Below are positions 10,583-33,705 of a DNA stretch of 33,705 nt, piece after piece; the stretch's first letter is position 1; every line of letters starts with the position of its first letter. The stretch is from contig CANQWL010000002.1 of the NCBI GenBank assembly GCA_947627555.1, positions 1 to 33,705 on the forward strand, written 5' to 3'. The translations under genes and the position numbers were made by a program. Under the pieces are notes generated by a model that was not told the DNA's origin, did not search any database, and saw only the letters and a list, made by a program, of their open reading frames with translations. Origin of the DNA: an uncultured Clostridia bacterium (GTDB taxonomy: Bacteria; Bacillota; Clostridia; TANB77; CAG-508).

Positions 10583-10608
10583 ATATTACTCCTTTTCAAA
10601 AAAAACTA

Positions 10609-14420: not shown

Positions 14421-15610
14421 ATTGCTTCATTCATTACTTTAGCTAAATATTTCATACTAGTTAGGCATTGCTCAAGTGTGTTTCCTGTTGCTCCAACTTC
14501 TATTATGCTTGCGTATTTACCTGTATGTTGATTATATCTTGATTCTGTTAACATTATTGGCTTAAATAATCCTGGATACATTTCTTCTGCTTTTTCTTGT
14601 ATTTTAATTGCAAATTTTAGGTTTTGATTCCAATTTGGATGCCATAAACCTCCAGCATTTGTTCCTATTACAAACATTATTTGTGCTGCCTCATCTGTAT
14701 CTCCTATTTTTACTGTTGGAGCATAATCGCTTCTCGCACCTACTGCATCTCTATGGACATCCATTATTATATCACTTGGAGTTGTTTTTAATATGTTTTC
14801 GACTGTTGCCAATGAACGAGTATATGAACCATTATATGCTGGATAGTCATGATAGTCTGTATTATGTATTACATTATAATTATATTGTTTTAATTGATTT
14901 TCTAATTCTGTTCCAACTCTTGTTACTGTATAGTCTAAATCTGTCGTTCTAAAATTTCCTGTTGGTGTATATGGATATTTTTCACTTGATGTATAACTTT
15001 CGCAACTATGTGTGTGAAATAATACAACATTTTTATTTTCAATAGTAATATTTGGTGTTAACATTTCTTGTGTTAATTCATATCCTGTTTGGTTTTTTAT
15101 TTTAACTTTTCCGTATTCTGTATTATAACTTTCTTGAATTGGATTATTAGTAATAATTTGTGTTGGTAATCCTGTTTGTGCCATTTGAATTTGCGTTTCA
15201 TCTTGCTTTTCTTGAGCTTGCTCACTTTCTTTTTCAGTTCCATTTTTCATATTTTCTTGTTTTTCTTTTTCTACTTTTTTTTCTATATTTTCCATTCCAT
15301 TAATGCTACTAATTTCAGTTTTTAATATTTGTTGTAGAACAGTATCTACGCCTTCTATCTTATTTTCTTCATTTATTTCATTAGTAGAACTTTTATTAAT
15401 TGCTGATATTGTTGGAATTGTTGTATCTATACATTCTAGTGTATTACTTTGTGCTATAGCTTTAGCACTATTCTTTACACCTTCTATAATTTTTCCATTG
15501 TTGTTTCCATCATAAAAATATTTACTTATATAAATTAAAATCAATAAGAATATTAGTCCTATAAAGAACTTCATTATGTCTTTCATTTTTAATACGGTAA
15601 CATTGAACAT
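14417..15610 (-). CDS. spoIIP: Stage II sporulation protein P (SpoIIP)
   Basis: 397 aa. N-terminal TM anchor, low-complexity linker, and a C-terminal SpoIIP amidase/peptidase-like domain (LFHTHSCESY...MDVHRDA...IMFVIG...IIEVGATGNTLEQ). GAGGAG RBS 8 nt upstream. Confidence 0.85.
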   Translation of the reverse strand: MFNVTVLKMKDIMKFFIGLIFLLILIYISKYFYDGNNNGKIIEGVKNSAKAIAQSNTLECIDTTIPTISAINKSSTNEINEENKIEGVDTVLQQILKTEISSINGMENIEKKVEKEKQENMKNGTEKESEQAQEKQDETQIQMAQTGLPTQIITNNPIQESYNTEYGKVKIKNQTGYELTQEMLTPNITIENKNVVLFHTHSCESYTSSEKYPYTPTGNFRTTDLDYTVTRVGTELENQLKQYNYNVIHNTDYHDYPAYNGSYTRSLATVENILKTTPSDIIMDVHRDAVGARSDYAPTVKIGDTDEAAQIMFVIGTNAGGLWHPNWNQNLKFAIKIQEKAEEMYPGLFKPIMLTESRYNQHTGKYASIIEVGATGNTLEQCLTSMKYLAKVMNEAM

Positions 15611-17506: not shown

Positions 17507-18274
<768 letters not shown>

Positions 18275-18302
18275 ATTTCTCCCTCCTACATTTTTTGTAT
18301 AA

Positions 18303-19124
18303 TTATTTCATATATGCTTTATAATAATGATGTGCTATTCTTTCATTTTCTGGTGGTAATTTCATATAATCTCCATACAATATTTTTAAACATTCATCAT
18401 AATTATAAGGAACTCTAAAAGTTTTACCGTTAAAATTTTTATAACATTCTAAATTTTTTCCATCATCTAACATGTTTTTGGTAAATTTTCTATCAAAATT
18501 GCTATTCCAACATAAAACATCAATATATTTTGATTTTTCAAAAGTATATTTTTGTGATATTTTATCAATTTTTTCTATAATTCTATTTAAATTTTTATTT
18601 TTTATCATCAAATAGTAAGGATATTTTAAAATTGTCCTTATTCTTGATTTACTAGGAATAAATGCATTTCTTCCTAGTATTCGTATGTTTTTAATGATAT
18701 GTTCTAATTTTCTATATAACCTTTTGTCATTAATACATACTCCATCTAAAGGATATATATCAACAAATAAACCTAATCCATAATCTTTAGCATCCTTATA
18801 ATCTATATAATATCGTGTATCTGAAAATCTAGCTATTGGATATATATATTTTTCATTTGTTGAGTAATGAATAAGTTCAAATGGTTTTAATTTTTTATTA
18901 TTTTCTTTACAATAAGAAATAAACTTTTCATAATCATCTCTCGGTACCCATACATCTATATCATCATCCCAAGGTATAAACCCTTCATGTCTTATAGCCC
19001 CTAGCAATGTTCCATAAGTTAAATAATACTTCCAACCATTTTCATCAAAAATTTCCTTTATTCTTTTTAAAACTTCAAAACTTCCTTGTTGAATTTGCTC
19101 AAGTGTAAGTTCTTTCTTTTCCAT
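18303..19124 (-). CDS. LicD family phosphotransferase
   Basis: 273 aa with the LicD signature YGTLLGAIRHEGFIPWDDDIDVWVPRDDY. Confidence 0.85.
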   Translation of the reverse strand: MEKKELTLEQIQQGSFEVLKRIKEIFDENGWKYYLTYGTLLGAIRHEGFIPWDDDIDVWVPRDDYEKFISYCKENNKKLKPFELIHYSTNEKYIYPIARFSDTRYYIDYKDAKDYGLGLFVDIYPLDGVCINDKRLYRKLEHIIKNIRILGRNAFIPSKSRIRTILKYPYYLMIKNKNLNRIIEKIDKISQKYTFEKSKYIDVLCWNSNFDRKFTKNMLDDGKNLECYKNFNGKTFRVPYNYDECLKILYGDYMKLPPENERIAHHYYKAYMK

Positions 19125-19148
19125 ATTTTTTACATCTCCTATTATATT

Positions 19149-20594
19149 CTATAAGTGTAATTTCACTAAAAATCTTTTTGCAAAATCACATACAAATTCT
19201 TCTTTTAGAGCTATTAATATTCCAAAATAAATTAATATTGAACCTATAATTTGTAACAATACCATATATAACTGATCTATTCTTAAAAAACTAATTAATT
19301 TCAAATATATACTCATTAAAATAATTACTATTATTTCTTTAAATAAAGTATCATTTATACTTTGCAATTTAAAATATTTTTTCCCAAAGTATACATATAT
19401 AACCATTACTACAAATTCTCCCATAACAGATGCTATTGATGCTCCTATTTCTTGATATCTTTGAATCAAAAAATAATTGAGTATAACATTTGTTACCGCT
19501 CCACATATTACAGGTATAACCATCTTCTTCTCATTATTTGTTACTAAACAAACTCTTGAGCCTAATAAATATCCTATTGGTGATATTAGCAAAATAAGAG
19601 ATACAATTTTTAATACATATGAGCTTCTTATATAGTTATCTCCATATAACTTACAAACTAAATAATTCGAAGTAAACCATATCCCAATTATCATTGGAAT
19701 TGAAACAAGTAAAATTGTTTTTAGTGCTTTTGTTAATACTTCATTATATTCTTTTATCTTTCCTTCTTTGTAATACTCTGATATTCTTGGTACAAGAACT
19801 ACTGTAAATGTATTTACAATTTGTAACAATATTTTATAAATTTTTATTCCATAAGAATAAAATGCTACATTTTCTTTTGAACACATATGTCCAAGCATTG
19901 TAATATCAACAAGTGAATATATTTCTATTGCTAAATTTACTACAACAAGGAAAAAAATGGACTTTAAGTGTCTTTTTAAATTTATATCTTTAAAAGTAAA
20001 CTTAACAAATTTTTTAGAATTCATGATATTTAGTATATAATTTCCAGCAGTTCCAATTACAGTTATTGCAGCATACATTAAATAATCATTAGGTGATTTT
20101 ACAAAAATAACTAATAAAAACAGTGAAAAAATTTTAAAAATAAGATTTCTAACTGATATATACTTGAATTCTTCTAATCCTTCATATAGCCATGAATTAT
20201 TTAAAACATTTAAAATAATAGAAATACCTACAACTAAAAATAATTTTAAATCTTGACTATATTTAGGAATGTGCAAAATTAGATAAAGATATAATAATGT
20301 AAAAATAATTGTGGATATAAAGTTTATTATCATTAATTCAGAATATACTTTATTTAATTTTTCTTTATCTTTTTTACATTTTGAAATCTCTCTTAAGCCA
20401 TAAGTTGGTATTCCTAAAAAAGAAAATATTACAAAATATTGTGCAAAGTTTCTAGCTATTTCAACTTGTCCAATTGTATCTGGTAGTAAAATATGTGTTA
20501 CATAAATGCCAGTAACAAATGGAAAAACTATATTTATCAAATTGTAAAATAAATAAAATATCGAATTAAAAGTCAATGATTTATTACTTTTCAA
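19149..20594 (-). CDS. Wzx-type oligosaccharide flippase (MOP superfamily)
   Basis: 481 aa and highly hydrophobic, with ~12-14 helices. Its position is typical of a Wzx/Wzy-type locus. TTG start with AAGGAG 9 nt upstream. Confidence 0.7.
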   Translation of the reverse strand: MKSNKSLTFNSIFYLFYNLINIVFPFVTGIYVTHILLPDTIGQVEIARNFAQYFVIFSFLGIPTYGLREISKCKKDKEKLNKVYSELMIINFISTIIFTLLYLYLILHIPKYSQDLKLFLVVGISIILNVLNNSWLYEGLEEFKYISVRNLIFKIFSLFLLVIFVKSPNDYLMYAAITVIGTAGNYILNIMNSKKFVKFTFKDINLKRHLKSIFFLVVVNLAIEIYSLVDITMLGHMCSKENVAFYSYGIKIYKILLQIVNTFTVVLVPRISEYYKEGKIKEYNEVLTKALKTILLVSIPMIIGIWFTSNYLVCKLYGDNYIRSSYVLKIVSLILLISPIGYLLGSRVCLVTNNEKKMVIPVICGAVTNVILNYFLIQRYQEIGASIASVMGEFVVMVIYVYFGKKYFKLQSINDTLFKEIIVIILMSIYLKLISFLRIDQLYMVLLQIIGSILIYFGILIALKEEFVCDFAKRFLVKLHL

Positions 20595-20609
20595 CTTTAA
20601 CTTCTCCTT

Positions 20610-21776
20610 TTAGTCTCTACTATATAAATCTCTTGTATAAACTTTATCTTTCACTTCAAAAAGTTTATCTTCATATCTATTTGCTAATATTACATCTGAT
20701 TCTTTTTTAAATTTTTCAAAATTATTTATTACATTGCAATCTAAAAACTTATCTTTTTTCAACGTTGGTTCATATATTATTATTTCAACGCCTTCTTTCT
20801 TTAAGTTTTCTATTACTCCTTGTATTGCACTAAATCTAAAATTGTCTGACTCTGATTTCATTGTTAACCTATATACTCCAACTATATCTGGATCTCTTCT
20901 CATTATCATTTCTGCTATATGTTTTTTCCTCGTTCTATTACTTCTTACTATTGCTCTTATTAAGTTTTGTGGTACATTTTCAAAGTTTGCTAACAACTGT
21001 TTTGTATCTTTTGGTAAACAATACCCTCCATATCCAAATGATGGATTATTATAATATGTTCCTATTCTTGGATCTAAACAAATTCCATCTATGATATCTT
21101 TTGAATTTAATCCCTTTATTTCTGCATAAGTATCCAATTCATTAAAATATGATACTCTCAATGCTAAATAAGTATTTGCAAATAATTTTACTGCTTCTGC
21201 TTCTGTTGAATTCATATATTTTACTTCTATTTTTTCTTTTAGTGCTCCTTCTTTTAAAAGATTAGCAAATTCTATTGCCCTTTTACTTTTTTCTCCCATT
21301 ATTATTCTTGAAGGATATAAATTATCATATAATGCTCGTCCTTCTCTTAAAAATTCTGGACTAAACATTATATTGTCTATTCCATATTTTTGTTTTATAC
21401 TCTCTATGTATCCTACTGGAATAGTTGATTTTACTACTATTGTTGTATCCATTTCCATTGATATTACTTTTTCTATTATATCTTCTACACTTGATGTGTC
21501 AAAATAATTTCTTTCATCATCATAATTTGTTGGTGTTGATATAACTATATACTTTGCTCCTTCAAAAGCGTCTTTATAGTCTAATGTTGCTTTTAAATCT
21601 AATGTTTTATTTGCAAAAAAATCTTCTATTTCTTTATCTCTTATTGGAGAAATTCTTTTGTTTATCATTTCAACTTTTTCTGGTATTATATCTAATGCAA
21701 CAACCTCATTTTTTTGACTTAATAATGTTGCTATTGATAATCCTACATATCCTGTTCCTGCTACTGCTATTTTCAT
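20610..21776 (-). CDS. ugd: UDP-glucose 6-dehydrogenase
   Basis: [14 protein letters not shown]ossmann N-terminus and catalytic [14 protein letters not shown]. By memory it resembles streptococcal HasB along its whole length. I place the start at the ATG at 21776 rather than the track's 21809. Confidence 0.9.
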
Positions 21777-21815
21777 TTTTATTATTTCCCTTCGAATTTT
21801 ATTTTTCATGTAAAA

Positions 21816-22844
21816 CTAATTCATATAGAATTCTTTATACCACTGCGCAAATTTTCTTAATCCTTCTCTTAGTGAAGTATGTGGTTTGAATCCAAAATCT
21901 CTTTCTAATGGTATTGTATCTGCATAAGTTACTGGTACATCTCCTGCTTGCATTGGTACTAATTCTTTATGTGCTTCAAAATCATAGTCTTCTGGTAATA
22001 CCTTTGCTCTTATTAATTCTTCTTGCAATATATTTACAAAATCTAATAAATTTTCAGGATGATTATTTCCTATATTATATATTGCATATGGTGGTATTGG
22101 TAAACCATCTTTTCCATTTTCCTTTTTAGGAGGTTTCTTTATTACTCTCACTATGCCCTCAACTATATCATCTATATATGTAAAATCTCTTTTGCAATTT
22201 CCATAATTAAATATCTTTATTTTTTCTCCTTTAAGTAATTTATTTGTGAATCCAAAATATGCCATATCTGGTCTTCCAGCTGGTCCATACACTGTAAAAA
22301 ACCTTAATCCAGTAGATGGAATATTATATAATTTAGAATAACTATGCGCTAATAATTCATTTGATTTTTTAGTTGCTGCATATAGTGAAACTGGATTATC
22401 AACTTTATCATCTGTTGAAAATGGTACCTTTGTATTTCCACCATAAACTGATGAACTAGAAGCATATACTAAATGTTCTACTTTGTAATATCTACAACAC
22501 TCTAAGATGTTGTAAAATCCTATTAAATTAGATTCAATATATACATCTGGATTTGTTATACTATATCTAACTCCAGCTTGTGCTGCTAAGTTTATTACTA
22601 TCTCTGGTTTATATTCTTTAAAAATATTTTCAACTGTTATTTTATCTGCTAAATTTCCTTTTATAAATATAAAGTTTTTAAATTTATTCAGTTCTTTTAA
22701 ACGATACTCTTTAATTTTTACATCATAATAGTCATTCATATTGTCTAAACAAATTACTTTGCAATCTACTTCATCTTTTAAAATCCTTTTGGCTAAATTT
22801 GAACCTATAAAGCCTGCTGCTCCTGTAATAAAATATATTTTCAT
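21816..22844 (-). CDS. NAD-dependent epimerase, UDP-glucuronate 4-epimerase-like
   Basis: 342 aa with ITGAAGFIGSNL and YAATKKSNE (YxxxK). It lies directly upstream of ugd. ATGA start/stop overlap with the preceding gene. Confidence 0.7.
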   Translation of the reverse strand: MKIYFITGAAGFIGSNLAKRILKDEVDCKVICLDNMNDYYDVKIKEYRLKELNKFKNFIFIKGNLADKITVENIFKEYKPEIVINLAAQAGVRYSITNPDVYIESNLIGFYNILECCRYYKVEHLVYASSSSVYGGNTKVPFSTDDKVDNPVSLYAATKKSNELLAHSYSKLYNIPSTGLRFFTVYGPAGRPDMAYFGFTNKLLKGEKIKIFNYGNCKRDFTYIDDIVEGIVRVIKKPPKKENGKDGLPIPPYAIYNIGNNHPENLLDFVNILQEELIRAKVLPEDYDFEAHKELVPMQAGDVPVTYADTIPLERDFGFKPHTSLREGLRKFAQWYKEFYMN

Positions 22845-23917
22845 TTTTTTGCTCCTTCTTGTTCATCTTTCATAAATTCTATCATTCTAATATACATTTC
22901 TTCTAAATCTTTTTTTGCTTTCCAACCTAATTTTTTTATTTTTTCTGTATCTAAATTCATGTGTAAAGTAGGTGCATATCCAAATTTATTTAAATTTTCT
23001 TCTACTATACACTTTACTCTTATATTTTGATTATTTTTTGACACTAAATTAGCCATTTCTAAAATTGAACAATATGTATCTTCATTAGCAAGGTTATAAA
23101 TATTATTTTCACTATTTTTTAATAAAATCTGTAAAACGGCACTTATTGCATCTGATACATACAAATAACTTCTTTTTGTATCTCCCTTTGTGTGAAGTAT
23201 AATATCTCTAGTTTCTATAACGCATCTAGCAAACTCTGCAAATACTCTTTCATCTTCATATCTAACACCAGACCCAAATGTTTGAGTTAACCTAATTATA
23301 CTTATAATAAAATTATATTTATTTGCATAACATGTACATAAATTTTCACACATAATTTTACTTATTGGATAACAATTTCTTGTATTAATAGTTGATAAAT
23401 CAATTCCATGTTCTTCTGTTATTTTTTCATCTGTTGATGGATGTCCATATACTTCCATGGTAGAAAAAAAGATGAACTTACTTATATTCTTTTTTTTTGC
23501 TAATTCTAATACATTTCTAGTTCCTCTTAAATTTATATCTATTGTTTCTAATGAATTTTGTATAAAAAATTTGCTTGAAGTTTGACTCGCAGCATGAATT
23601 ATATAATCAATATTTCCATTATATATAATTTCATCTACTATATTTCCTTCTATAAATTCTAACTGTCCTTTGTTAAATATCAGCTGTTTTTCAAACATTT
23701 TTTTTGCTTTATTTAAATTTCTTACTAATGCAATAACTTTACAATTTAAATTATATTCATAATTAGCATATATAATTGTATTTACTAATAGACTACCTAA
23801 TAGTCCAGTAGCACCTGTAACAAAAATATTTTTATTTTTTAATAATTTCCAGTTTATTTTTTCATTAAAAACATTTTCTTCTATATCTTCTTTATAAATT
23901 TTATTTTCAAAATTCAT
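22841..23917 (-). CDS. NAD-dependent epimerase/dehydratase family SDR
   Basis: 358 aa with VTGATGLLGS and YPISK. It lies immediately downstream of an IspD-like cytidylyltransferase, so it could be a CDP-ketose or alditol reductase. Confidence 0.7.
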   Translation of the reverse strand: MNFENKIYKEDIEENVFNEKINWKLLKNKNIFVTGATGLLGSLLVNTIIYANYEYNLNCKVIALVRNLNKAKKMFEKQLIFNKGQLEFIEGNIVDEIIYNGNIDYIIHAASQTSSKFFIQNSLETIDINLRGTRNVLELAKKKNISKFIFFSTMEVYGHPSTDEKITEEHGIDLSTINTRNCYPISKIMCENLCTCYANKYNFIISIIRLTQTFGSGVRYEDERVFAEFARCVIETRDIILHTKGDTKRSYLYVSDAISAVLQILLKNSENNIYNLANEDTYCSILEMANLVSKNNQNIRVKCIVEENLNKFGYAPTLHMNLDTEKIKKLGWKAKKDLEEMYIRMIEFMKDEQEGAKK

Positions 23918-23929
23918 ATAAATTTTCCT

Positions 23930-24700
23930 CTATTCATTTTTTATTATATTGTACTGTATTCCTATTTTATTAGTCTCACCAAGGTTAAAAATTTGTTCAC
24001 TTTCTTTGTATTGTAAAAAAGCTTTAAATGTAAATACGTCTTCAGGAGTCGTAATTTTTATATTTCCTCTATTACCCTTTACCAAGTGAATACTTTTTCC
24101 TAATTTTCTAAAAATAGTACATGCATCAACCATATTTTTATATCCATCTTTTGAATTTCTTATCTTTTCATGTGCCTCAATAATGTCTTTTAAATAAAAA
24201 CTTTGCGGAGCTTGTCCAATAAAAGTTTCGTTCCTTGTTGTTACTGCATCTATGTAATTATTATCTTTGCTTATCATTATAGTCTCAAATGCTGGTATAC
24301 TAGTAATAGCGTTTCCAAATTTTTTTACTCCTTCTATATTGCTAGAAATAACATCAGATGAAACAAATGGTCTAACACCATCATGTAACAAAACTATTGT
24401 ATTTTCAGGATTTTCTTTTTCTACTTCTTTTAAAGCATTATATATAGAATCTTGAGCAGTTTTACCACCTTCTACAATAGAAACTACTTTATCTAATTTA
24501 TATATGTTTATTAAATTATTCACGTATCCTATGTAATTTTTTAAAGTTGAAATGTATATTTTATCTATTTCTTTATTATATTGAAATAGTTCTACTGTAT
24601 GAACCAATATAGGTTTACCATTTATCTCTAAAAATTGTTTAGGTATCTCTGATTTCATTCTTGTTCCTTTACCACTTGCAAATATTACTGCTACATTCAT
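23930..24700 (-). CDS. IspD/TarI-family cytidylyltransferase (CDP-alditol type), copy 1
   Basis: 256 aa with IFASGKGTRMKSEIPKQF and HDGVRPF. AAGGAG RBS. Confidence 0.8.
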   Translation of the reverse strand: MNVAVIFASGKGTRMKSEIPKQFLEINGKPILVHTVELFQYNKEIDKIYISTLKNYIGYVNNLINIYKLDKVVSIVEGGKTAQDSIYNALKEVEKENPENTIVLLHDGVRPFVSSDVISSNIEGVKKFGNAITSIPAFETIMISKDNNYIDAVTTRNETFIGQAPQSFYLKDIIEAHEKIRNSKDGYKNMVDACTIFRKLGKSIHLVKGNRGNIKITTPEDVFTFKAFLQYKESEQIFNLGETNKIGIQYNIIKNE

Positions 24701-24713
24701 TATATCTTACTCC

Positions 24714-25637
24714 TTATAACCAATTTAATAAAACCTTACAAATAAATATAAATCTTTTTTCATCTATATTTTTATATACATTTTGACTAAAAATTAATTT
24801 TATTTTATTTCTTATGTTCTTTCTATAATTAACTATTTGCTCAACAACTAATTTATCTTTTTCATTTAAATCAATTTTATTTAACAGTTCACTTGCTATT
24901 TTACTTCTTCCATTTCTTAACGAATCATTAAATATCTTTTTCTTAATAATTTTTAATTTTCTTTTCAATCCATTATCTATTCCAACAGTATTTTTATTAT
25001 GTATTCTATAATTTATATAAGAGTTTTCATCGTATATAACATATCCTATTGCTGATGCAACAAGTATAACCCAGACATCATGCATTCTTATACGTAAAAC
25101 ATCATTATTAGGTCTTCTATTTTTTTCAGAAATTATATTTCTTAGTTGTTTATTCATTACCATTGTACATCCTGCAATGTGATTTCCAAAAATAATATTG
25201 ACAAGTGAAATATTAGGATTTCTATTATATCTTAACCCTTCTATTTTATTTTCTCGAAAGATTGTCTGATTAGAACAATATAATGCTGGTTTATCATATT
25301 TTTCTATTTTTTCTATTGCCTTATATAATTTATTTTCTTTCCAGATATCATCTTGATCTGCAAAAGCATAATAATCATATTCTTGTGGTGCTTCATATAA
25401 TAGTTGCATAAATCCTACTGCTGGTCCTAAATTTTCGTCGCCTAATATCACTTTTACTTTATTTTCTTTTTCTATTGTTTTTAGATATTCTCTTGTTCCA
25501 TCTGTTGACATATCATCTCTTATAATTAAATATACTTCTACATCCTTTTGGTTTAAAATAGATTGAATTTGTTCTTCTATATATTTTTTTCCATTATATG
25601 TAGCCATTAATACACATATTTTTTTATTATCCATCAT
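24714..25637 (-). CDS. Glycosyltransferase family 2
   Basis: 307 aa with CVLMATYNGKKYIEEQIQSILNQ, RDDMSTDGT and FADQDDIW (DxD). Confidence 0.85.
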   Translation of the reverse strand: MMDNKKICVLMATYNGKKYIEEQIQSILNQKDVEVYLIIRDDMSTDGTREYLKTIEKENKVKVILGDENLGPAVGFMQLLYEAPQEYDYYAFADQDDIWKENKLYKAIEKIEKYDKPALYCSNQTIFRENKIEGLRYNRNPNISLVNIIFGNHIAGCTMVMNKQLRNIISEKNRRPNNDVLRIRMHDVWVILVASAIGYVIYDENSYINYRIHNKNTVGIDNGLKRKLKIIKKKIFNDSLRNGRSKIASELLNKIDLNEKDKLVVEQIVNYRKNIRNKIKLIFSQNVYKNIDEKRFIFICKVLLNWL

Positions 25638-26931
25638 CTAAATCTCCATTTATTTTATAATTCACATGTTTATTATTATACTTTATTTTAAAATTGTTAT
25701 TGAATACAATTCCAATTATAAAACACCAAATAAATCTTTCCATAAATGAGGTTGTTGTGTAGTACGATCCAAAAAAAGATAATATGCTAAATGTTATATA
25801 ACAGCAAAAAAATATATTTTTTCTGTCATTATTATTAAAATGTATATTTAAGAATATGCATTCACTAATAAATCCCCATAAGATACTGAATATTCCAAAA
25901 GCTAATATATTTCCATTTCCATATGCCATTGTCATAGTAGAAACTACATTTCCTTCTTGAGCTTCAAACCCACTAGAAATTGTTGTTACAGAAGGAAAAG
26001 AACTTAAATATGGTAAATTTTCAGCAACTTGTCCTCCCATTTTTATTCCGAAAAATTTATTTATAATCATATCCGGAAAAGCAAATATAATATCCCATAT
26101 ATAATCAAAACCATTAGTAATAACTTGGCTTGATGATGATGTAATTAAATTAGAATTTATAATTCCTCCTGCAATATAAGTCCACAAACGATATACATAG
26201 TATGTCCCTTCTACATTTTCAACAAAACCTTGTAAAATAAATTTTGATGCATAATTAGTAATAAACACAATACCTATTAAAGGGAAAATTAAAAATAAAC
26301 CTCTTTTAAAATATTTTTTATCTTTTAATGAACAATATATATAAGTAGATAAAACCAGTGATATGATTTGTGCTTTTTCAGTTTCTATAAAAGAATATAT
26401 TGCATAGATTAAAAATAAAATTAAATACTTCTTATCTTTTTTATTTTTAAGCCAATGATAAAAATATAACATCATTAATGGAAATACTGAAAGCATTAAA
26501 TGAGATACCGGTCCTCTAGATACAAACATTTTAAAATCATTTTCAATCATTCCATGTAAACCATAATTAAAATAATATTTTAATAATTGTGCAGATCTTA
26601 TTAGTAAAACTATGATTACATATGGTACTGTTTTTTCTACTAAAATTTTATTTGTATTTATTTCTTTATTATTATTTTTTTTAAATCTATTTGATATTGT
26701 TAATATGCAAAATACTGAGCCAATAAAGAAAAAAATTATACCTAAAAAAATCATCCATTGTGTATCTGAGTTGATTTCTTTAAAATAAAATTTCGTAGCA
26801 ATATGATTATTAATTAATAATATAACCACATAAGGTAACATTATAGCATTAAATGAATTTATACTTCTTTTATAAATTTTCTGATAAAATATAACTATTA
26901 ATATAGTAATAATATAAATTGCAATTTCCAT
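25627..26931 (-). CDS. Wzy-like oligosaccharide repeat-unit polymerase (polytopic membrane protein)
   Basis: 434 aa with ~10-12 hydrophobic helices. Called from locus context together with Wzx. No diagnostic motif recognised. Confidence 0.5.
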   Translation of the reverse strand: MEIAIYIITILIVIFYQKIYKRSINSFNAIMLPYVVILLINNHIATKFYFKEINSDTQWMIFLGIIFFFIGSVFCILTISNRFKKNNNKEINTNKILVEKTVPYVIIVLLIRSAQLLKYYFNYGLHGMIENDFKMFVSRGPVSHLMLSVFPLMMLYFYHWLKNKKDKKYLILFLIYAIYSFIETEKAQIISLVLSTYIYCSLKDKKYFKRGLFLIFPLIGIVFITNYASKFILQGFVENVEGTYYVYRLWTYIAGGIINSNLITSSSSQVITNGFDYIWDIIFAFPDMIINKFFGIKMGGQVAENLPYLSSFPSVTTISSGFEAQEGNVVSTMTMAYGNGNILAFGIFSILWGFISECIFLNIHFNNNDRKNIFFCCYITFSILSFFGSYYTTTSFMERFIWCFIIGIVFNNNFKIKYNNKHVNYKINGDLDDG

Positions 26932-26972
26932 ATAAAAATTTCCTTTTAAATAGAATTTTATTTTTTATTCAA

Positions 26973-27728
26973 TTATCGATTATAACTATTACATTTCCAT
27001 AAATAATAAAATATGACAATTACCATTGCTAGTATGTAAAATAAATCATAATATACTGATAATAGTCCGTATAAATTAAAAAATGGACATAAAAATAATA
27101 TAAACATTGGAATTCCTACTATTCCACATTCTACTCCAACCATTTTTCTAAATTTCTGAAATCCTTTTAAAGTATATTGATTATTTCCTTTTTCTATTTT
27201 TTTACCTGTTTTTATTTCTACTTGAGTTGCCTCAAAAGCAAATTTTTGATGAATAAGTCTAGATAAGGCATTACCTGTAGATGCTACACCAGCAAAAATC
27301 AATAAATATTTATCAGATATATTTAATTGATTATATCCTACATTAATGCTCGCACAAGCTAGTGAAATTGGCAAAAAAATTGTTATTATATAACCGCTCA
27401 TAGCATCAATAAATTCACCAAAATATGATTCTGTCTTTGTATATCTTGCAATATTTCCATCTATGCAATCAAATAAATGCCAAATAGGTACTAAGATTAC
27501 ACCTATAACACGTATTATATTATTAGGAATTGCCATAAATATGCATGCAAGAAAAGCAATTATAATTGATAATACACTTACTTGAAAAGCACTTGCTCCT
27601 ATTTTTAAAAACGGTATAGTAACCCAATATGATATTTTTCTTACAGGAACTATTATTCCATATATTGATTCTACAGATTTTTTTTCTTTTGGAAAAGTAT
27701 TTTTTAAGTCATTATACGTTACTTTCAT
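26973..27728 (-). CDS. CDP-alcohol phosphatidyltransferase family protein
   Basis: 251 aa membrane protein carrying DCIDGNIARYTKTESYFGEFIDAMSG. This matches D-x2-DG-x2-AR-x8-G-x3-D, but the final x3-D position is Gly. Confidence 0.75.
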   Translation of the reverse strand: MKVTYNDLKNTFPKEKKSVESIYGIIVPVRKISYWVTIPFLKIGASAFQVSVLSIIIAFLACIFMAIPNNIIRVIGVILVPIWHLFDCIDGNIARYTKTESYFGEFIDAMSGYIITIFLPISLACASINVGYNQLNISDKYLLIFAGVASTGNALSRLIHQKFAFEATQVEIKTGKKIEKGNNQYTLKGFQKFRKMVGVECGIVGIPMFILFLCPFFNLYGLLSVYYDLFYILAMVIVIFYYLWKCNSYNR

Positions 27729-27763
27729 AACTTTACTCCTCTTACTAAATAAAATTTTATTTT

Positions 27764-28659
27764 TTATATATTAAACAAATTACCCAACTCAAAATCATAT
27801 TCGTCTGGTTCAAACATAAAATATCCACTTGCATTAAAGAATGTCATTTCTCCAAAAAATATATTACCATCTATATTGTAAAAATCCACTCTTACATGAG
27901 GAAAACCCTTTGATAATTTCTTTGCCATTTCAACCATCTTTTCAAAGTTTTTTGGTTTTTCCGGTTGCCTCAAAATTGGTTTAAAATCTTTACGATGAAC
28001 ATCTAATAATTTAAAATTCATATCAAAAAATCCTAACTCACCTAAATCATGATTTTCTCTATAATTTTGCATCATATATAAACATATTGGTTTTCCATCA
28101 AAACAAAAAAACTTATAATCTGGTAAATCCCCATCTAAGCCGTCTAATTTTTTTTCTACTATTATACGATGCTTTTTATTATCATAACACCATTCTCTAC
28201 CAACATTCTTTTTGTTTATAGGTTCATTTACCCATTTTTTCATTTGAGATATTAATTCGTTTTTATTACATGAATTTTTATCATTTATTAGCAGAACAGA
28301 GGTTCCACCCCCCCTAATGTATCTTTTAATACAAATTTATTTGGGAGTTTATCAAAATCAATTTCTAATGGATTGTCATATACTCCATAACATTTATTTA
28401 ATATATTTTCTAAACCACATTGTTTTACATATTTTCTAACTTCATATTTATCTACACATTTTTCCATAAGTGGATTTCTATATTTCAACTTATATAATTG
28501 TAATTTTTCAGTATATCTTTTGGGATTATTTAAATTTAATTTTCGTCCTGTTTTTATCCTATATTGTAAAGATAACATTTGTTTATCAGGAATAAAATTT
28601 AATAATCTTAAAATTCTTATACGTACATTTTTAGATTTTATAATTTTCTTATAATCCAT
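27764..28659 (-). pseudogene. TupA-like ATP-grasp protein, split in two by a frameshift at a G7 tract
   Basis: ORFs 28288-28659 (NLNNPKRYTEKLQLYKL...KFVLKDTLGG) and 27764-28243 (DYKFFCFDGKP...VRVDFYNIDGNIFFGEMTF) are the N- and C-terminal halves of one ~298-aa protein. Adding one G at 28308-28314 gives an open frame through ...TLGGGGTSVLLINDKNSCNKNELISQMKKWVNEP... Confidence 0.8.
28308..28314 (-). repeat. Poly-G(7) tract on the coding strand, at the ATP-grasp frameshift
   Basis: The plus strand reads CCACCCCCCCTAA. Codon-by-codon check: there are 71 nt from the first G to the downstream ATG, so +1 G restores the frame and no stop codon intervenes. Confidence 0.9.
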
Positions 28660-28671
28660 ATTTACCTCTTT

Positions 28672-29766
28672 TTAATTTATTTTTTCTAAATATTTTTCTA
28701 TTACTATATTTCTATTAAATTGTTTAATCATTTTTTCTCTTCCTGCTAATCCCATATTCTTTTTTTGTTCGTATGATAATTTAATAAATTTTTCTATTTT
28801 ATTAACTAAATCTTTTACATTTCCCTTTTCATAAATATATCCTGTATATCCGTTATTTACTGTTTCAAAACATCCAGGATTATTTGTAGTAATAATTGGT
28901 CGTCCAGAAGATGCATTTTCTAATAACACATTCGACATACCTTCTCCATATTTAGAAGGATGAATAATTGCATGAGACCTTTTGATATAAGGAATAACAT
29001 CCTTTTGCTCTCCTCTATAAATAATTATTCCATCATCTTCTAATTTTTTAAAATCATCTATATAATGTTTTTCCGTTGGTTCAATAAAACCAATTATATT
29101 AAATTCGGTATTTTTATATTTCTTTTTAATTTCTTTCGCTGCTTCTATATAATCATCTATACCCTTTTCTTTTAAAACTCTGCCAAAATAATTAAATACA
29201 ATTTTTTCGTCATTTGGAGGATATTCTTGTAGCGAGAATTTATTTATATTAACTCCAGATCCTGGAATTAGTTGATAATCACCAGATATTATTTTCTTAT
29301 TTAATATTAGTTTCATGTTAGTTTCATTTTGAAAAAATACACATTTAGATTCTTTTAATGCAAGTTTTAATAATTTATATATTAAATTTTGTAAGAGTTT
29401 CCCTTTATTTAATATACTGCCTAAACCTGTAATATTGTTTATATATTCTACTTTACAAAATCTACATGCGATACTTGCATAAACATTCGGTTTTATTGTA
29501 TATGCTAAAACAATATCTGGTTTATATTTATTTAAAAATTTAATATAATGTAACAATAGTTTAAAATCTTTTAGTGGATTTATTCCCCTTCTATCTATAA
29601 TAGGATTATCTAATTTGAATTTTATATTATTCATTAAATCTAATTTTTCACCATATGGACAAGAAATTATTATTTCATTTTTTTCTAAATATAATTTTTC
29701 AATTAATTCTTTTCTAAAACAATATATATCATCAGCATGATTTGCTACTATTGCTATTTTTTTCAA
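28672..29766 (-). CDS. Glycosyltransferase family 4
   Basis: 364 aa with the GT-B/GT4 E-x7-E region PSKYGEGMSNVLLENASSGRPIITTN. Confidence 0.85.
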   Translation of the reverse strand: MKKIAIVANHADDIYCFRKELIEKLYLEKNEIIISCPYGEKLDLMNNIKFKLDNPIIDRRGINPLKDFKLLLHYIKFLNKYKPDIVLAYTIKPNVYASIACRFCKVEYINNITGLGSILNKGKLLQNLIYKLLKLALKESKCVFFQNETNMKLILNKKIISGDYQLIPGSGVNINKFSLQEYPPNDEKIVFNYFGRVLKEKGIDDYIEAAKEIKKKYKNTEFNIIGFIEPTEKHYIDDFKKLEDDGIIIYRGEQKDVIPYIKRSHAIIHPSKYGEGMSNVLLENASSGRPIITTNNPGCFETVNNGYTGYIYEKGNVKDLVNKIEKFIKLSYEQKKNMGLAGREKMIKQFNRNIVIEKYLEKIN

Positions 29767-30537
29767 TTATTTTAACACTCCTATCACTGTATCTATACAT
29801 ATCTTAAAATCATTTATTAAACTAAATTTTTTTATGTATTCTAAATTATATTTCATTTTCTTTGGTAATACTTCTTCTATATAGATATCATCAATATCTT
29901 TTATATTTTTCATACTTTCAGATGAATCTTGCATTTCTTCAACAGTTGTTATATTAGCATACATTCGCTCTCTATTTTTTAACATATATTTATTTAAAAT
30001 TTCGTTTTCATTTTTATATTTAATACTTGCATATGATGTTACTCCTGCTGGCATTAATAAAGTTGCTTTCATTTCATCTGTATACTTATCTACATATTTT
30101 TTTACTTCTGGTCTGGTTCCTACAAATGACATGTCTCCCTTTAGTATATTTATCAATTGCGGAAATTCATCTAATCTTAATTTCCTTATTATATTTCCAA
30201 CTCTAGTTATCCTAGAGTCTTCATTTAATGTTATTAAATTTCCTATCTTGTCTGCATCTTGTATCATAGTTCTAAATTTTAATATTTTAAAAATTCTATT
30301 ATATTGTGTTATTCGTGGTTGCTTATAAAACACTGGTCCTTTTGAGTCAATTTTTATAACTATAGCTAATATTATAAATATTGGCAAAAGTACTATTAAC
30401 AATATAATTGAAAAGAATATATCAAAAAATCGTTTTAGTAATAAACTTATTTTTCTTTTTTTCAATTCATCATAATATATACGTGTTTTTTCATTTTTAA
30501 TATTTTCTGGCAAGTCTTCCCATTTTTTTAAAATCAT
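29767..30537 (-). CDS. Initiating sugar-phosphate transferase (bacterial sugar transferase family, PglC/WbaP C-terminal-domain type)
   Basis: 256 aa with a single N-terminal reentrant/TM helix, FKILKFRTM and DEFPQLINILKGDMSFVGTRP. There is an extra ~40-aa acidic insertion before the C-terminal helix. Confidence 0.85.
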   Translation of the reverse strand: MILKKWEDLPENIKNEKTRIYYDELKKRKISLLLKRFFDIFFSIILLIVLLPIFIILAIVIKIDSKGPVFYKQPRITQYNRIFKILKFRTMIQDADKIGNLITLNEDSRITRVGNIIRKLRLDEFPQLINILKGDMSFVGTRPEVKKYVDKYTDEMKATLLMPAGVTSYASIKYKNENEILNKYMLKNRERMYANITTVEEMQDSSESMKNIKDIDDIYIEEVLPKKMKYNLEYIKKFSLINDFKICIDTVIGVLK

Positions 30538-30541
30538 ATTA

Positions 30542-31738
30542 TTACTCCAAAATTTTTTTAAAGTTTTTTATTATATATTCTATTTGTTCATCTGTTAATA
30601 AAGTATGCAGTGGTAATGTTATTTCATTTTTATACATTTCATAAGAATTTGGATAATCTTTTATATCAAATCCCAAATTTTTATATGCCATCATCATCGG
30701 TAATGGTTTATAATGTACATTTGTCGGTATTCCTAAGTTTGACATCTTCTTTATAATATTATTTCTATATTCTTCATCTTTACCTAGTAGTCTAACAAAA
30801 TATAAATGTCCGCTTGATTGAATTTTATCATTATAATGTTCTAATATTTGAATATTATTATCTTTTAGTCCTTCATTATACATTTTTATAATTTCTTTTC
30901 TTCTTTTTAATAGTTCATTATATCTACATAATTGTGCTAATCCAATTGATGCCATAATATCTGTCATATTGCATTTATAAGCTGGCATTTTTATGTCATA
31001 TTCCCAACCATTTGATTTAGTTTTTGATAAGGCATCTTTGTTTTGCCCATGCAAAGACCATAACATAAATTGCTCATATATTTCTTCATCCTGTATGCCT
31101 CTGATTTTTTTCCAAGTTACTGCTCCTCCTTCTGCTGTAGTTAAATTTTTGACTGCATGAAATGAAAAACTTGTAAAATCCGCAATATTACCAGTATTAA
31201 TACCTTTGTATTTAGCCCCAAAAGAATGTGCTCCATCTGCTATTATTACTATTTTTCCTATTGCTTTTTGTATTTTATTTTTAGCTATAAATTTTTCTTT
31301 ATTATTTTCTATTATCTCATATATTTTATCGTAATTCGCTGGTATTCCAGCTAAATCAACTGCTATAATAGCTTTGGTTTTATTTGTTATTTTTTCTTCT
31401 ATTCTTTCATAGTCCATTTCATAAGAATCTTTTGCTGTATCAAGAAATACAATTTTTGCTCCTACATGTTCAATTACACTTGCTGAAGCTGTATATGTAT
31501 AGGCTGGAACAATTACTTCATCATCTTTACCTATTTCTAATATTCTTAATATCATTTCTAATCCTGCGGTTGCAGAATTTAAGCAAACTGCTTTGGGTGT
31601 ACCACAAAATTCTGCTATTTGTCTTTCAAATAATTTTGTTTTTGGACCAGTTGTAATCCATCCTGATTTTAATGTATCTACCACTTCATCAATTTCTTTT
31701 TGCGTTATATCTGGTGGTGAAAATTTTATACATTCCAA
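30542..31738 (-). CDS. DegT/DnrJ/EryC1/StrS family PLP-dependent sugar aminotransferase
   Basis: 398 aa with SGWITTGPK, DGAHSFG and FSFHAVKNLTTAEGGA (PLP lysine). TTG start with AGAAGGA ~6 nt upstream. Confidence 0.9.
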   Translation of the reverse strand: MECIKFSPPDITQKEIDEVVDTLKSGWITTGPKTKLFERQIAEFCGTPKAVCLNSATAGLEMILRILEIGKDDEVIVPAYTYTASASVIEHVGAKIVFLDTAKDSYEMDYERIEEKITNKTKAIIAVDLAGIPANYDKIYEIIENNKEKFIAKNKIQKAIGKIVIIADGAHSFGAKYKGINTGNIADFTSFSFHAVKNLTTAEGGAVTWKKIRGIQDEEIYEQFMLWSLHGQNKDALSKTKSNGWEYDIKMPAYKCNMTDIMASIGLAQLCRYNELLKRRKEIIKMYNEGLKDNNIQILEHYNDKIQSSGHLYFVRLLGKDEEYRNNIIKKMSNLGIPTNVHYKPLPMMMAYKNLGFDIKDYPNSYEMYKNEITLPLHTLLTDEQIEYIIKNFKKILE

Positions 31739-31998
31739 ATCAATTCCTTCTTTCTTCTTTCCTTATAGTTAATGTCTTTTATACATTTTGTATTTCATTA
31801 ATTTTCATTATTACAACATAGAATCAATGAATATTTTGCTTCTTCATCTATACATTTCAGTATAGATTTGCGATATTCAACATAACTACATAAACATATA
31901 GTTTATGCACTTACCTATATGTTTTTATTTCACATAGGCTTTTTATTTATAAGTTTTACATTTAGAGTATTTATTTTGTTTTTTATAAAATTTTTAAT

Positions 31999-33252
31999 TT
32001 ATATTTTTTTGTCATATTTCCTTAAGCAACCCAATGCTATGTTCATTGCACAATTAAAGAAATAATCTGCTTGATGTCCATTTTTACAAATTGCCTTATC
32101 TTCTATTATTTTTTTATTTGTTTGTTTCCTTATTTTTCTTTCCATTACTTCTCCACATTTGTAGCATTTATCTGTTTTTTCTGTCATATCAACAAATGTT
32201 ACAAGAATATTTTCTTTAAATGCTTTATATCTAACGTAGTTTGTGATTCTATCTCTTAATGTTGCTGGATTAAATCTTTTTGAATATTTTAAAAAGATTT
32301 TGTCACTTCTAACATTTGATAGTGCTATTATTGTAACTTCATTTTCTACGCAAAAATCTACAATATTTCTGCTTATTACATGTGAAAAATGTGTGGTATA
32401 TTTTGATATCTTTTTCCAGTACTTTTTATTTGAACCTTTAACTTTATTTGAATTTTTAGCTATATGAGTATTTCTTTGTATCTTCCTCATAGCTTGGCTT
32501 GTTAAATATTTATATTCGTCTCCTCCTGAAATAAATAAAGTTTTCACAAATTTACCGTTAATATCTACTACTACACATGTTGCAATGTTGTTCTTTCCGG
32601 AAAATGCTACTCCACATACTCGTGTGTTCTTATCTTCCATTCTTTCTTTTATTGTTGTAAGATTTTCTACTGTACACCTTACTGGAATGTCTACTAATAC
32701 AAATTTCTTTTCTACCTTGATTTTTGGAGATAAGAGCTCTGCATTTTCAGGTATGTCCCATTTACTAAACTTTGCTTCATACCATTTCCAGTCTGTTCCG
32801 TTATAGAGTTTGAATTTAATTTTTCTATCTTCTAAGTATTGATACATTTCTTGATAATATGTTGTAGGAAAATTAAATTCTTTTGCTATACTTGGAAGTT
32901 TATTGTTTTTACTGCTGTCAACACTTTTTTCTAAGTTTGTAAAATATGCTTTTGCTTGTCCTATCGCTTGCATCATAGCTGACCTTCTGAACCTAGAGGG
33001 TACATCACATTTGAAATATTCTTTTGGAATTTCTCCGTATTTATTTATACATGTTATATTTTCTAGCTTTGTTCTACAGTTTCTAGAAGATTCTTTGAGA
33101 AATTCTTGATATTTAAATAGTAAATTATAATATTTTAGTACAAGTTCATTAAATTTTTGATTCGTTAATTTAAAGTATTCTAAATATTCTGTGTATAGCC
33201 TTCTTTTATAAATTACTGTGTAATACCCTTGTTTTTGCTCTTCTTCAGCCAT
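31999..33252 (-). CDS. TnpB-like (IS605 OrfB family) protein with substituted RuvC-I and RuvC-II catalytic positions
   Basis: 417 aa. TnpB hallmarks are HVISRNIVDFCVENEVTIIALSNV, YVRYKAFKENILVTFVDMTEKTDKCYKCG...CKNGHQADYFFNCAMNIA (zinc ribbon plus RuvC-III). The expected G-[IV]-D-x-G is GVAFSG and the expected I-x-x-E-D-L is IIALSNV. GGAGG RBS 6 nt upstream. There is no tnpA nearby. Confidence 0.8.
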   Translation of the reverse strand: MAEEEQKQGYYTVIYKRRLYTEYLEYFKLTNQKFNELVLKYYNLLFKYQEFLKESSRNCRTKLENITCINKYGEIPKEYFKCDVPSRFRRSAMMQAIGQAKAYFTNLEKSVDSSKNNKLPSIAKEFNFPTTYYQEMYQYLEDRKIKFKLYNGTDWKWYEAKFSKWDIPENAELLSPKIKVEKKFVLVDIPVRCTVENLTTIKERMEDKNTRVCGVAFSGKNNIATCVVVDINGKFVKTLFISGGDEYKYLTSQAMRKIQRNTHIAKNSNKVKGSNKKYWKKISKYTTHFSHVISRNIVDFCVENEVTIIALSNVRSDKIFLKYSKRFNPATLRDRITNYVRYKAFKENILVTFVDMTEKTDKCYKCGEVMERKIRKQTNKKIIEDKAICKNGHQADYFFNCAMNIALGCLRKYDKKI

Positions 33253-33273
33253 TTTATTCCTCCGAATTTACAC

Positions 33274-33296
33274 CATAAAGTCAAAGACTTTATGAT
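33274..33296. repeat. IR-L: 23-bp site CATAAAGTC-AAA-GACTTTATGAT, the perfect inverted copy of 33577-33599
   Basis: Read directly. 9-bp palindromic arms flank an asymmetric AAA core. It lies 21 nt upstream of the tnpB-like start codon. Confidence 0.9.
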
Positions 33297-33310
33297 TTTT
33301 AGGCATAATA

Positions 33311-33352
33311 AAAAAAGGCAATGAGCCTATTATTAGCTTTATTGCCTTTTTA
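33311..33352 (-). terminator. Rho-independent terminator (bidirectional shape, stronger on the minus strand) inside the IR-bracketed segment
   Basis: AAGGCAAT/ATTGCCTT stem extended by AGC/GCT. T6 follows on the minus strand and T4 on the plus strand. Confidence 0.65.
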
Positions 33353-33537
33353 GTATTACATATTTAGTTACTTATTTTTATAATTATAACAATATATTAA
33401 AATATTTTGTTTTAATTCAATGTTATGTTAGGTTTTATATGATATTTTTTTTGTTCTCATATCCTCTGTACCCCCCTTATATATCTGTTACTTCTATAAA
33501 TTTTTTAGAAGATAATCTAAAAAAATGTCAATAAGTA

Positions 33538-33566
33538 TTGAACTATTTATAAACTTGTGTTAAAAT
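33538..33566 (+). promoter_or_regulatory. Promoter P1: TTGAAC-17 nt-TAAAAT with a TGn extended -10, inside the IR-bracketed segment and pointing out through IR-R
   Basis: Plus strand reads TTGAACtatttataaacttgTGtTAAAAT. The spacing was counted directly. Confidence 0.55.
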
Positions 33567-33576
33567 AAAAATTGAT

Positions 33577-33599
33577 ATCATAAAGTCTTTGACTTTATG
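33577..33599. repeat. IR-R: 23-bp site ATCATAAAGTC-TTT-GACTTTATG, the perfect inverted copy of 33274-33296
   Basis: Read directly. Its reverse complement is identical to IR-L over 23 bp. Confidence 0.9.
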
Positions 33600-33617
33600 A
33601 TTTTTTATGTATATAAT
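33589..33617 (+). promoter_or_regulatory. Promoter P2: TTGACT-17 nt-TATAAT, with its -35 box formed by IR-R
   Basis: Plus strand reads TTGACTttatgattttttatgtaTATAAT. The spacing was counted directly. Confidence 0.55.
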
Positions 33618-33649
33618 CTTCCGGCTATGCCCAATGTCAACAACTTAAG

Positions 33650-33688
33650 AAAAAGAAGAAGTTTTTATACAAAATTTCTTCTTTTTTG
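33650..33688 (+). terminator. Rho-independent terminator about 65 nt downstream of P2
   Basis: AGAAGAAGTTTT ... AAAATTTCTTCT stem of ~12 bp including one G-U, followed by T5. Confidence 0.55.
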
Positions 33689-33705
33689 ATATAATTTTGG
33701 TAGGG

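Follow-up and report, generated by a model that had tools for sequence, protein, structure and literature searches.

A candidate invertible promoter switch upstream of a TnpB-like gene and a surface-polysaccharide operon in an uncultured clostridial lineage

The locus and its inverted site pair

The contig CANQWL010000002.1 from an uncultured Clostridia bacterium was analyzed over its entire length of 33,705 nt (referred to here as the window), and the subject of this analysis is a candidate invertible promoter switch near one of its ends. The switch stands directly ahead of a tnpB-like gene (31999..33252, minus strand; 417 aa, precomputed Pfam assignment PF27142), which would be the first gene under its control. 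Next come a structured RNA scaffold and a glycopolymer biosynthesis operon (17507..31738, minus strand) that is co-oriented and downstream of the switch. The operon encodes a DegT aminotransferase, an initiating sugar transferase, glycosyltransferases, a UDP-glucose dehydrogenase and a Wzx-type flippase. As the window is the complete contig, the switch is located only ~100 bp from the contig end.

The central feature is a perfect 23-nt inverted repeat (IR), already proposed in an initial annotation of this DNA, in which positions 33274-33296 (CATAAAGTCAAAGACTTTATGAT) are the exact reverse complement of 33577-33599 with an inter-arm distance of 280 nt. When 32500-33705 was shuffled 300 times, no perfect inverted repeat within 400 nt exceeded 14 nt (longest per shuffle, 8-14 nt), compared with the 23 nt observed. 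The putative proximal recombination core site, IR-L (33274..33296), precedes the start codon (ATG) of the tnpB-like gene by 23 nt and has the arms CATAAAG and CTTTATG around the 7-bp spacer TCAAAGA on the plus strand. The putative distal core site, IR-R (33577..33599), has the same arms, and its spacer, TCTTTGA, is the reverse complement of the IR-L spacer. Within the window, both sites are palindromic with 9-11-bp arms and a 3-nt centre (AAA/TTT), and hairpin folding of each site gives -11.1 to -11.6 kcal/mol. The initial annotation had described such a layout, 9-bp arms around a 3-bp core, and likened it to lox and hix; the likeness holds in spirit, but the 3-bp core gives way, on comparison with related loci, to arms of 7-9 bp and a 7-bp spacer. 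Its claim that the sites are inverted by their centres, favouring a flip over a deletion, is borne out by the spacers. Because each site is palindromic, the two can equally be scored as a direct repeat (36 nt, 83% identity), and the pair is "inverted" by its centre alone. The flanks of the two sites share AATT and a T-run in direct orientation, a likeness judged not meaningful.

The motif CATAAAGTC-N3-GACTTTATG was found at two places only in the 33.7-kb window, allowing up to 3 mismatches, where none was expected. A scan of 185,579 reference genomes returned single unpaired matches only, 28 of them in unrelated taxa, which is about chance level; a dispersed or repetitive extragenic palindrome (REP)-like element was rejected on this ground. 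The switch region has no Rfam family match, even at E<=1.

The two sites bound a putative invertible segment of 280 bp (33297..33576), which is non-coding and belongs to the small type described below. Near its distal end, the predicted promoter P1 (33538..33566, plus strand; TTGAAC-17-TGtTAAAAT) sits within the segment at 14 nt from the distal site and faces out of it, away from the operon, in agreement with the location and sequence given initially, TG element included. P1 is predicted to be a strong, sigma-A-type promoter. At the proximal end of the segment, a predicted bidirectional intrinsic terminator (33311..33352) forms a hairpin that is flanked by U-runs at both ends and has an energy of -18.2 kcal/mol on each of the strands (z = -3.6); the initial annotation had named it as a terminator, to which its bidirectional character can now be added. 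In the present orientation this terminator is predicted to block read-through into the operon. IR-R is followed by TTTTTT on the plus strand, its hairpin folds with -11.1 kcal/mol, and a terminator-like match covers 33577-33601 (plus strand); in the present orientation IR-R is predicted to double as an intrinsic terminator for P1. On the gene side, a GGAGG ribosome-binding site (RBS) for the tnpB-like gene is read from the sequence at 33259..33263 (minus strand), and no alternative gene-facing promoter was found between the terminator and the ATG.

Several further signals were observed around the distal end. A promoter-like TTGACT-17-TATAAT (11/12) at 33589-33617 (plus strand) has its -35 element within the distal site and is aimed at the contig end, and a second one, TTGACA-16-GATTAT at 33613-33640 (minus strand), lies outside the segment and is aimed into it; neither is conserved in the other loci read. 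Between the switch and the contig end, 33650-33686 forms a bidirectional terminator-like hairpin with 16-nt arms that are 94% complementary and with a weak, sub-threshold Rfam match (RF02592, E=0.097); it is probably the terminator of an upstream gene off the contig.

Related loci, their spacers and their recombinase

Searching 5.8 billion sequences with the tnpB-like protein identified 16 close homologs. DNA was fetched around 12 of them, giving 13 further distinct loci (the protein P0002 occurs at two loci) and, with the window, a set of 14 in which the lead proteins share 37-64% identity. In all 14 loci the homolog heads a polysaccharide operon on the same strand, the shortest contigs showing merely the start of the region downstream of it. 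No further relatives were found in Joint Genome Institute (JGI) metagenomes, IMG/VR or phages, and plasmids yielded distant TnpBs only, as tblastn matches to annotated TnpB.

The site motif C[A/G]TAAAG-7-nt spacer-CTTTA[T/C]G was found directly upstream of the tnpB-like gene in 14/14 loci, with the proximal site alone visible in L047 and L052. A strict TAAAG-N7-CTTTA is confined to the switch sites in each 2-34-kb stretch examined, the arm-variant sites of L029, L030, L043 and L048 having been located separately from this strict motif scan. In every locus with both sites visible (12/12), one spacer is the exact reverse complement of its partner. The spacers themselves vary between loci: TCAAAGA in the window, TTCAATA in L029, TTATGTA in L030, TTGCATA in L031, TTTCTTA in L037, GACTAAA in L041, TAGTGTA in L043, GAGAATA in L048, TTTTTTA in L049, TATATTG in L050 and TAATAAA in L051. 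The single shared case is L035, whose proximal spacer TATTGAA is the L029 spacer in the opposite orientation. Inverted arms around a 7-nt asymmetric spacer, with matching partner spacers, constitute the core-type layout of tyrosine recombinases (lox/FRT/dif), and the strand exchange of these enzymes requires spacer identity; such a requirement would account for spacers that are reverse complements within each locus and variable between loci. Three loci from one sample (L029, L030 and L047) have three different spacers.

A recombinase of the matching class is also present in this family. The initial annotation had advised looking for a tyrosine or serine recombinase nearby or elsewhere; an orthologous tyrosine recombinase of ~305 aa was found linked to the site pairs in nine related loci, with mutual identities of 48-79%, and the enzyme belonging to the window copy was not found. 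The gene lies inside the segment in L031, L035, L041, L043, L047, L048, L049 and L052, and just outside it, transcribed divergently, in L037. All linked genes carry the precomputed Pfam assignment PF00589 (Phage_integrase), and the R..HxxR..Y residues are visible in the translations as the motifs GLRLGE, H(I/V)LRHTFAT and LN(R/K/L)YVH. The best NCBIfam matches are Xer-type models, down to 1e-27 and all below equivalog cutoffs, with weak similarity to 'tyrosine-type DNA invertase' models as well. The action of these recombinases on the site pairs of their own loci is putative, and for the window copy a recombinase encoded elsewhere would have to act in trans.

Two architectures can be distinguished. 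In the small type (the window, L029, L030, L037, L050 and L051), the sites bound 184-288 bp of non-coding DNA and, apart from L037, there is no recombinase in the neighbourhood; the segments homologous to that of the window measure 184-238 bp in the five relatives. The large type comprises the eight loci with the recombinase within the segment, which measures 1.06-1.2 kb where both sites are visible (L031, L035, L041, L043, L048 and L049). The recombinases of L037 (4592-5509, outside and divergent) and L049 (3037-3954, inside) are 79% identical; being so alike and yet placed differently, they indicate that the module was rearranged between close relatives, which a single inversion cannot explain.

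The transcription signals recur along with the sites. In 13 loci, the window included, one site has a promoter of the TTGAAx-17-TGnTAAAAT type 10-25 nt inward of it, directed outward across the site; L052, whose contig stops short of that end, is outside this count. At the end away from the promoter, most loci have a terminator hairpin immediately within the other site, with none evident in L051. The fixed flanks are asymmetric: among loci with a visible outer flank, the distal site is followed outward by a run of 5-7 T in most, and the gene side of the proximal site has the RBS and no T-run, with a site-to-ATG distance of 22-26 nt in 9/12 loci. This asymmetry implies that an outward promoter would be stopped at once by the site hairpin and that a gene-facing promoter would read through.

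A comparison of orientation among related genomes, as suggested initially, showed one locus mirrored and each locus sampled repeatedly always in the same orientation. The promoter stands at the distal site and faces away from the operon (OFF) in 13 loci, the window included. L048 is the mirror image, with its recombinase on the opposite strand, its terminator abutting the distal site and its promoter (TTGAAA-17-TGaTATTAT) turned toward the tnpB-like gene, at 11 nt from the proximal site (ON). Its segment is inverted relative to six other large-type loci, and blastn against five of these segments gave minus-strand matches over 835-947 bp. The mirrored block is delimited by the sites themselves, from which it follows that inversion at such sites has occurred.

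Some contigs of the set show peculiarities of their own. L029 (5705-7434) and L030 (5405-7181), both from sample ERZ27060014, have an identical 399-aa lead protein and an identical RNA, and differ in their spacers (TTCAATA vs TTATGTA), upstream genes and downstream polysaccharide genes, which suggests recent duplication or recombination of a switch-regulator module between loci. The shared 399-aa protein looks frameshifted near its C-terminus, with the usual NCAMN motif encoded just past the stop. The L047 contig, at ~3x coverage, starts inside the distal site (1-10), and L033 (1-12) ends just past the proximal site; such contig ends may reflect assembly-graph branching at recombination sites, an observation that is anecdotal at this low coverage.

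The switch model and competing explanations

These data suggest that the window likely holds a site-specific invertible promoter switch (inverton), captured OFF upstream of a surface-polysaccharide cluster. This is the reading reached in the initial annotation, and it gains support from the recurrence of the sites, the outward promoter and the internal terminator at 13 homologous loci, from the tyrosine recombinase linked in nine of them and from the mirrored L048. For the window locus itself, we infer that the segment can flip, that its promoter and terminator are active and that the recombinase acts in trans. Together, the switches make up a coherent family, not characterised before, of an uncultured clostridial lineage; it has a well-defined site consensus, its own dedicated recombinase and two architectures, and it is directly testable. 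What is new is the whole: locus-specific spacers, a recombinase that may be segment-borne, and a switched operon whose first product is a nuclease-dead TnpB-like protein accompanied by its RNA.

In the proposed mechanism, an Xer-like tyrosine recombinase would bind the two core sites (inverted arms of 7-9 bp and an asymmetric 7-bp spacer) and exchange strands within the 7-bp spacer. Since the two spacers are reverse complements, recombination would flip the 280-bp segment instead of deleting it. In the OFF state, P1 would fire outward, its transcript would be stopped almost at once by the distal hairpin together with the T-run of the fixed flank, and the internal terminator would shield the operon from upstream read-through. 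In the ON state, P1 would face the gene, and its transcript, meeting no T-run at the proximal site, would continue into the RBS and take in the nuclease-dead TnpB-like gene, its RNA and the polysaccharide operon. The predicted flipped (ON) junction is TTTACAC-CATAAAGTCAAAGACTTTATGAT-ATCAATTTTTATT; for read mapping, it is predicted as TTTACAC / CATAAAGTCAAAGACTTTATGAT / ATCAATTTTTATTTT, to be used with the partner junction. The locus-specific spacers would stop several switches under one recombinase from recombining with each other. Lying between conserved arms, they look like natural heterospecific sites and would let one recombinase run several independent (orthogonal) switches.

A number of observations weigh against a working switch. 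The window encodes no recombinase, as had been noted initially and as tblastn with five family recombinases found again. The promoter and terminator calls are consensus-level predictions, and each site could plausibly be an RNA hairpin or terminator as well, the distal one bearing flanking A- and T-runs. The mirrored L048, a diverged paralog or ortholog, proves evolutionary inversion and not physiological switching. Among contigs from 2-4 samples (the same-locus groups L031/32/34, L035/36, L037-40, L041/42 and L043-46), no single locus was seen in both orientations, the orientation being the same in three samples for L031, four each for L037 and L043, and two each for L041 and L035. Finally, 13/14 loci are OFF. 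Such a 13:1 bias is compatible with a genome holding several such loci, most of them OFF, and also with rare switching.

Several of these points would be equally expected if both palindromes were static elements that never recombine, with the operon under another promoter. The upstream one could be a bidirectional terminator or insulator and the downstream one a 5' stabiliser, or both could be operators of a dimeric DNA-binding regulator. Each site does form a stable hairpin, the distal one has A- and T-runs typical of a bidirectional terminator, a single orientation prevails in 13/14 loci and in all multi-sample cases, and the flanks of the two window sites are weakly alike in direct orientation. 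A hairpin, operator or terminator model, however, gives no reason for spacer or loop pairs that are reverse complements and vary between loci, nor for arms whose sequence is conserved beyond pairing at 37-64% protein identity. It also leaves the linked tyrosine recombinase and the mirrored L048 segment unexplained, and the other promoter it calls for was not found between the terminator and the ATG. Static elements are for these reasons considered an unlikely explanation.

The linked recombinase raises another alternative, namely that the sites are the ends of an integrase-bearing mobile cassette and that the 280-bp version in the window is a decayed remnant without switching. In eight loci the unit of 1.1-1.2 kb is roughly a tyrosine recombinase gene bounded by inverted sites, the small type could arise from the large type by deletion, and the 79% identical recombinases of L037 (outside) and L049 (inside) do point to a rearranged module. 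A mobile unit fits poorly with a position that is always the same, 22-33 nt upstream of the lead-gene ATG in most loci and never elsewhere in the related loci examined; there is no sign of target-site duplications, and the scan of reference genomes showed no dispersal of the motif. The recombinase-free copies (the window, L029, L030, L050 and L051) moreover keep perfect sites, the promoter and usually the terminator, which argues for selection on the switch rather than decay, and the cassette model is regarded as very improbable. The nature of the adjacent gene, a TnpB relative, also brings to mind the subterminal ends of an IS200/IS605-type transposon carrying it. The ends of IS200/IS605 elements are imperfect hairpins, and the window sites recall them in this respect. 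Yet both hairpins lie upstream of the gene instead of flanking it, no tnpA is present, all three RuvC catalytic residues are lost and the gene is syntenic with polysaccharide operons in 14/14 loci; this origin is effectively refuted by the anatomy (no tnpA, both hairpins upstream, synteny), and hardly any credence is left for it.

The lead gene, its RNA and known systems

Under the inverton model, the first product of the ON state would be the tnpB-like protein. Its matches to the NCBIfam models guided_TnpB (E=1.4e-11, residues 33-406) and Cas12f2 (E=2.6e-14) are both below curated cutoffs, and TnpB/Cas12f entries of the PDB match at 1e-7, which characterizes it by sequence as a weak, full-length TnpB/Cas12f relative. 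A deep profile search with the protein returned 86 clusters at E<=1e-30 and 1,045 at E<=1e-3. In alignment A3, distant full-length relatives keep the RuvC triad D-E-D (VDLG / IVFExL / aDLNAs.NIG), whereas the window clade has CGVAFS / IIALSN / DYFFN at the triad columns, corresponding to D->A, E->S and D->F; HMMER alignment to PDB 8hr5 and 9nzp agrees on the RuvC-II and RuvC-III substitutions. With all three RuvC catalytic residues replaced, the protein is predicted to be nuclease-dead. Variants of the gene occur within the family. Between the switch and the polysaccharide genes, L035 (2402-5004) and L047 (1364-3971) carry two tandem tnpB-like paralogs, and each paralog has an RNA copy to itself. 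In L031 (5736-6933; also L032-L034) the lead gene is split into overlapping open reading frames (ORFs) of 299 aa and 112 aa in contigs from several samples, and it may have become a pseudogene by frameshift, with the switch in front of it otherwise intact.

Directly 3' of the tnpB-like gene lies the structured RNA scaffold (31828..31938, minus strand), which folds into three hairpins and a long-range helix. A conserved RNA element is found 3' of every family gene, one copy per gene and the tandem paralogs of L035 and L047 included, as in L029 (7254-7400), L031 (6932-7075), L035 (3644-3780 and 5011-5150) and others. RNAalifold on alignment A2, made of 13 copies, gave 16/27 compensatory pairs. 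Over 34 pairs, 95% of the cells are paired and 18 pairs have double (compensatory) changes, compared with 6.6 +/- 1.9 in shuffles, and pairing falls to 23-58% in slid controls. The RNA has no Rfam family match, even at E<=1. These features point to a likely candidate for an omega-RNA-type guide RNA, whose variable tail after the scaffold (31812..31827, minus strand; TTGATTCTATGTTGTA) would be the candidate guide. In the search for a guide target, exact 11-16-mers of the RNA tails gave AT-rich noise only, in the window and the related loci. The window tail has a 13/16 match on its own proximal site (33269-33284); its 5 matches, against 1.9 +/- 1.4 expected, were judged within chance, and the match was not reproduced at other loci, where tails match their own switch regions no better than foreign ones. 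No terminator between the RNA and the first operon gene is evident in the sequence.

The lead gene combines three sequence features expected of a TldR-like gene, namely TnpB homology, a RuvC site predicted to be dead and a structured RNA on its 3' side. TldRs are known from the literature as fliC-, csrA- and oppF-associated clades, which share with the lead gene the relationship to TnpB, the inactivated RuvC domain, the stable association with a host operon and not with a transposon, and the structured RNA immediately 3'. The lead gene differs in belonging to another clade, in scoring below the Pfam and NCBIfam TnpB cutoffs, in standing before a polysaccharide operon behind an invertible promoter, and in its lack of a guide-target match in the window and the related loci. 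No clade tied to polysaccharide loci or invertons was found in the TldR literature searched. The lead protein thus resembles a TldR-type RNA-guided regulator by its sequence, with RNA-guided repression only putative.

A more speculative extension, which we hold as possible but rather doubtful, is that the switch controls, beyond the polysaccharide operon, a phase-variable and hitherto undescribed class of RNA-guided regulator. In such a scheme, every polysaccharide locus in these clostridia would be headed by a dead TnpB-like protein and a guide RNA that are expressed only while the locus has its inverton ON. By binding DNA at other places, such as rival polysaccharide loci or their switches, the ribonucleoprotein would enforce the expression of one locus at a time. 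If the lead protein is an RNA-guided regulator, surface glycans and phase variation would provide a fourth biological context beside the three characterised TldR clades, and DNA inversion would be joined to RNA-guided DNA binding, two regulatory mechanisms hitherto separate. If control is indeed exerted one locus at a time, it would be an RNA-guided functional analogue of the Bacteroides UpxY/UpxZ hierarchy.

Invertible promoters ahead of capsule loci are textbook knowledge for Bacteroides and much less characterised in Firmicutes. In its working, the proposed switch is like other invertible promoters. The closest parallels to the window are the Bacteroides loci in function and regulatory lead genes, clostridial invertons in size and enzyme class, the RecV and fimS switches in enzyme class, and Hin in having its recombinase inside the segment. 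In C. difficile, the RecV switches (flgB, cwpV and cmrRST) have IRs of ~20 bp around 150-300 bp, and one trans-acting tyrosine recombinase serves several surface-structure switches. They are like the present family in their Firmicute host, tyrosine recombinase, and IR and segment sizes. They differ in that RecV is unlinked to its sites, several of them act after initiation (leader terminator, Rho) and not by moving a promoter, and none involves a polysaccharide operon or a TnpB-like lead gene.

The Salmonella Hin/hix system has hin inside the invertible segment together with the fljBA promoter, and its serine recombinase uses a 2-bp crossover and requires Fis and an enhancer. This segment is similar to the large-type loci L031, L035, L041, L043, L048 and L049, which have the recombinase inside and an outward promoter at one end; it differs from them in its serine recombinase and 2-bp crossover, where the present family has a tyrosine recombinase and 7-bp spacers. 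At E. coli fimS, the tyrosine recombinases FimB and FimE invert a promoter segment of ~300 bp with short IRs, and the population is OFF-biased. Enzyme class, size of the promoter segment and OFF bias are shared with the present loci, but the Fim recombinases are encoded outside the segment and are much shorter, at ~200 aa, and the family recombinase has its best matches, below cutoff, among Xer-type models.

In the Bacteroides Mpi capsule promoters, IR-flanked promoter segments of ~200 bp lie directly upstream of polysaccharide operons, as here, and several capsule loci per genome are mostly OFF, a possible parallel to the bias seen in the present set (in part from PMC11685472). The first genes of these operons are, in a further parallel, locus-specific regulators and not enzymes (in part from PMC11685472). 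The differences lie in the serine recombinase Mpi and another IR sequence, as opposed to a Firmicute host with a tyrosine recombinase, and in lead genes coding for the NusG-like UpxY and for UpxZ, as opposed to a nuclease-dead TnpB-like protein with a structured RNA. Because the enzyme of the relatives is a tyrosine recombinase, the window switch falls outside both the Mpi and the Hin family.

The PhaseFinderDC study reported the Clostridia inverton group 139 with tyrosine invertase group 35, whose flipping was verified by reads in culture (PMC11892184). Group 139 has IRs of 14-26 bp around ~206-228 bp and a tyrosine recombinase within 5 kb (PMC11892184), and it resembles the window family in class, size and enzyme type. 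TnpB is not mentioned in that paper (PMC11892184).

Two other regions of the window may be recorded. At 9470-11862 (minus strand), adjacent ORFs of 370 aa and 417 aa have no Pfam match; the 417-aa ORF (10609-11862) was considered as a paralog of the tnpB-like protein and rejected, the two having the same length and no relation. A SpoIIP homolog was found at 14417-15610 (minus strand; E=4e-62), and this gene, together with the window GC content of ~25%, places the host among endospore-forming Firmicutes.

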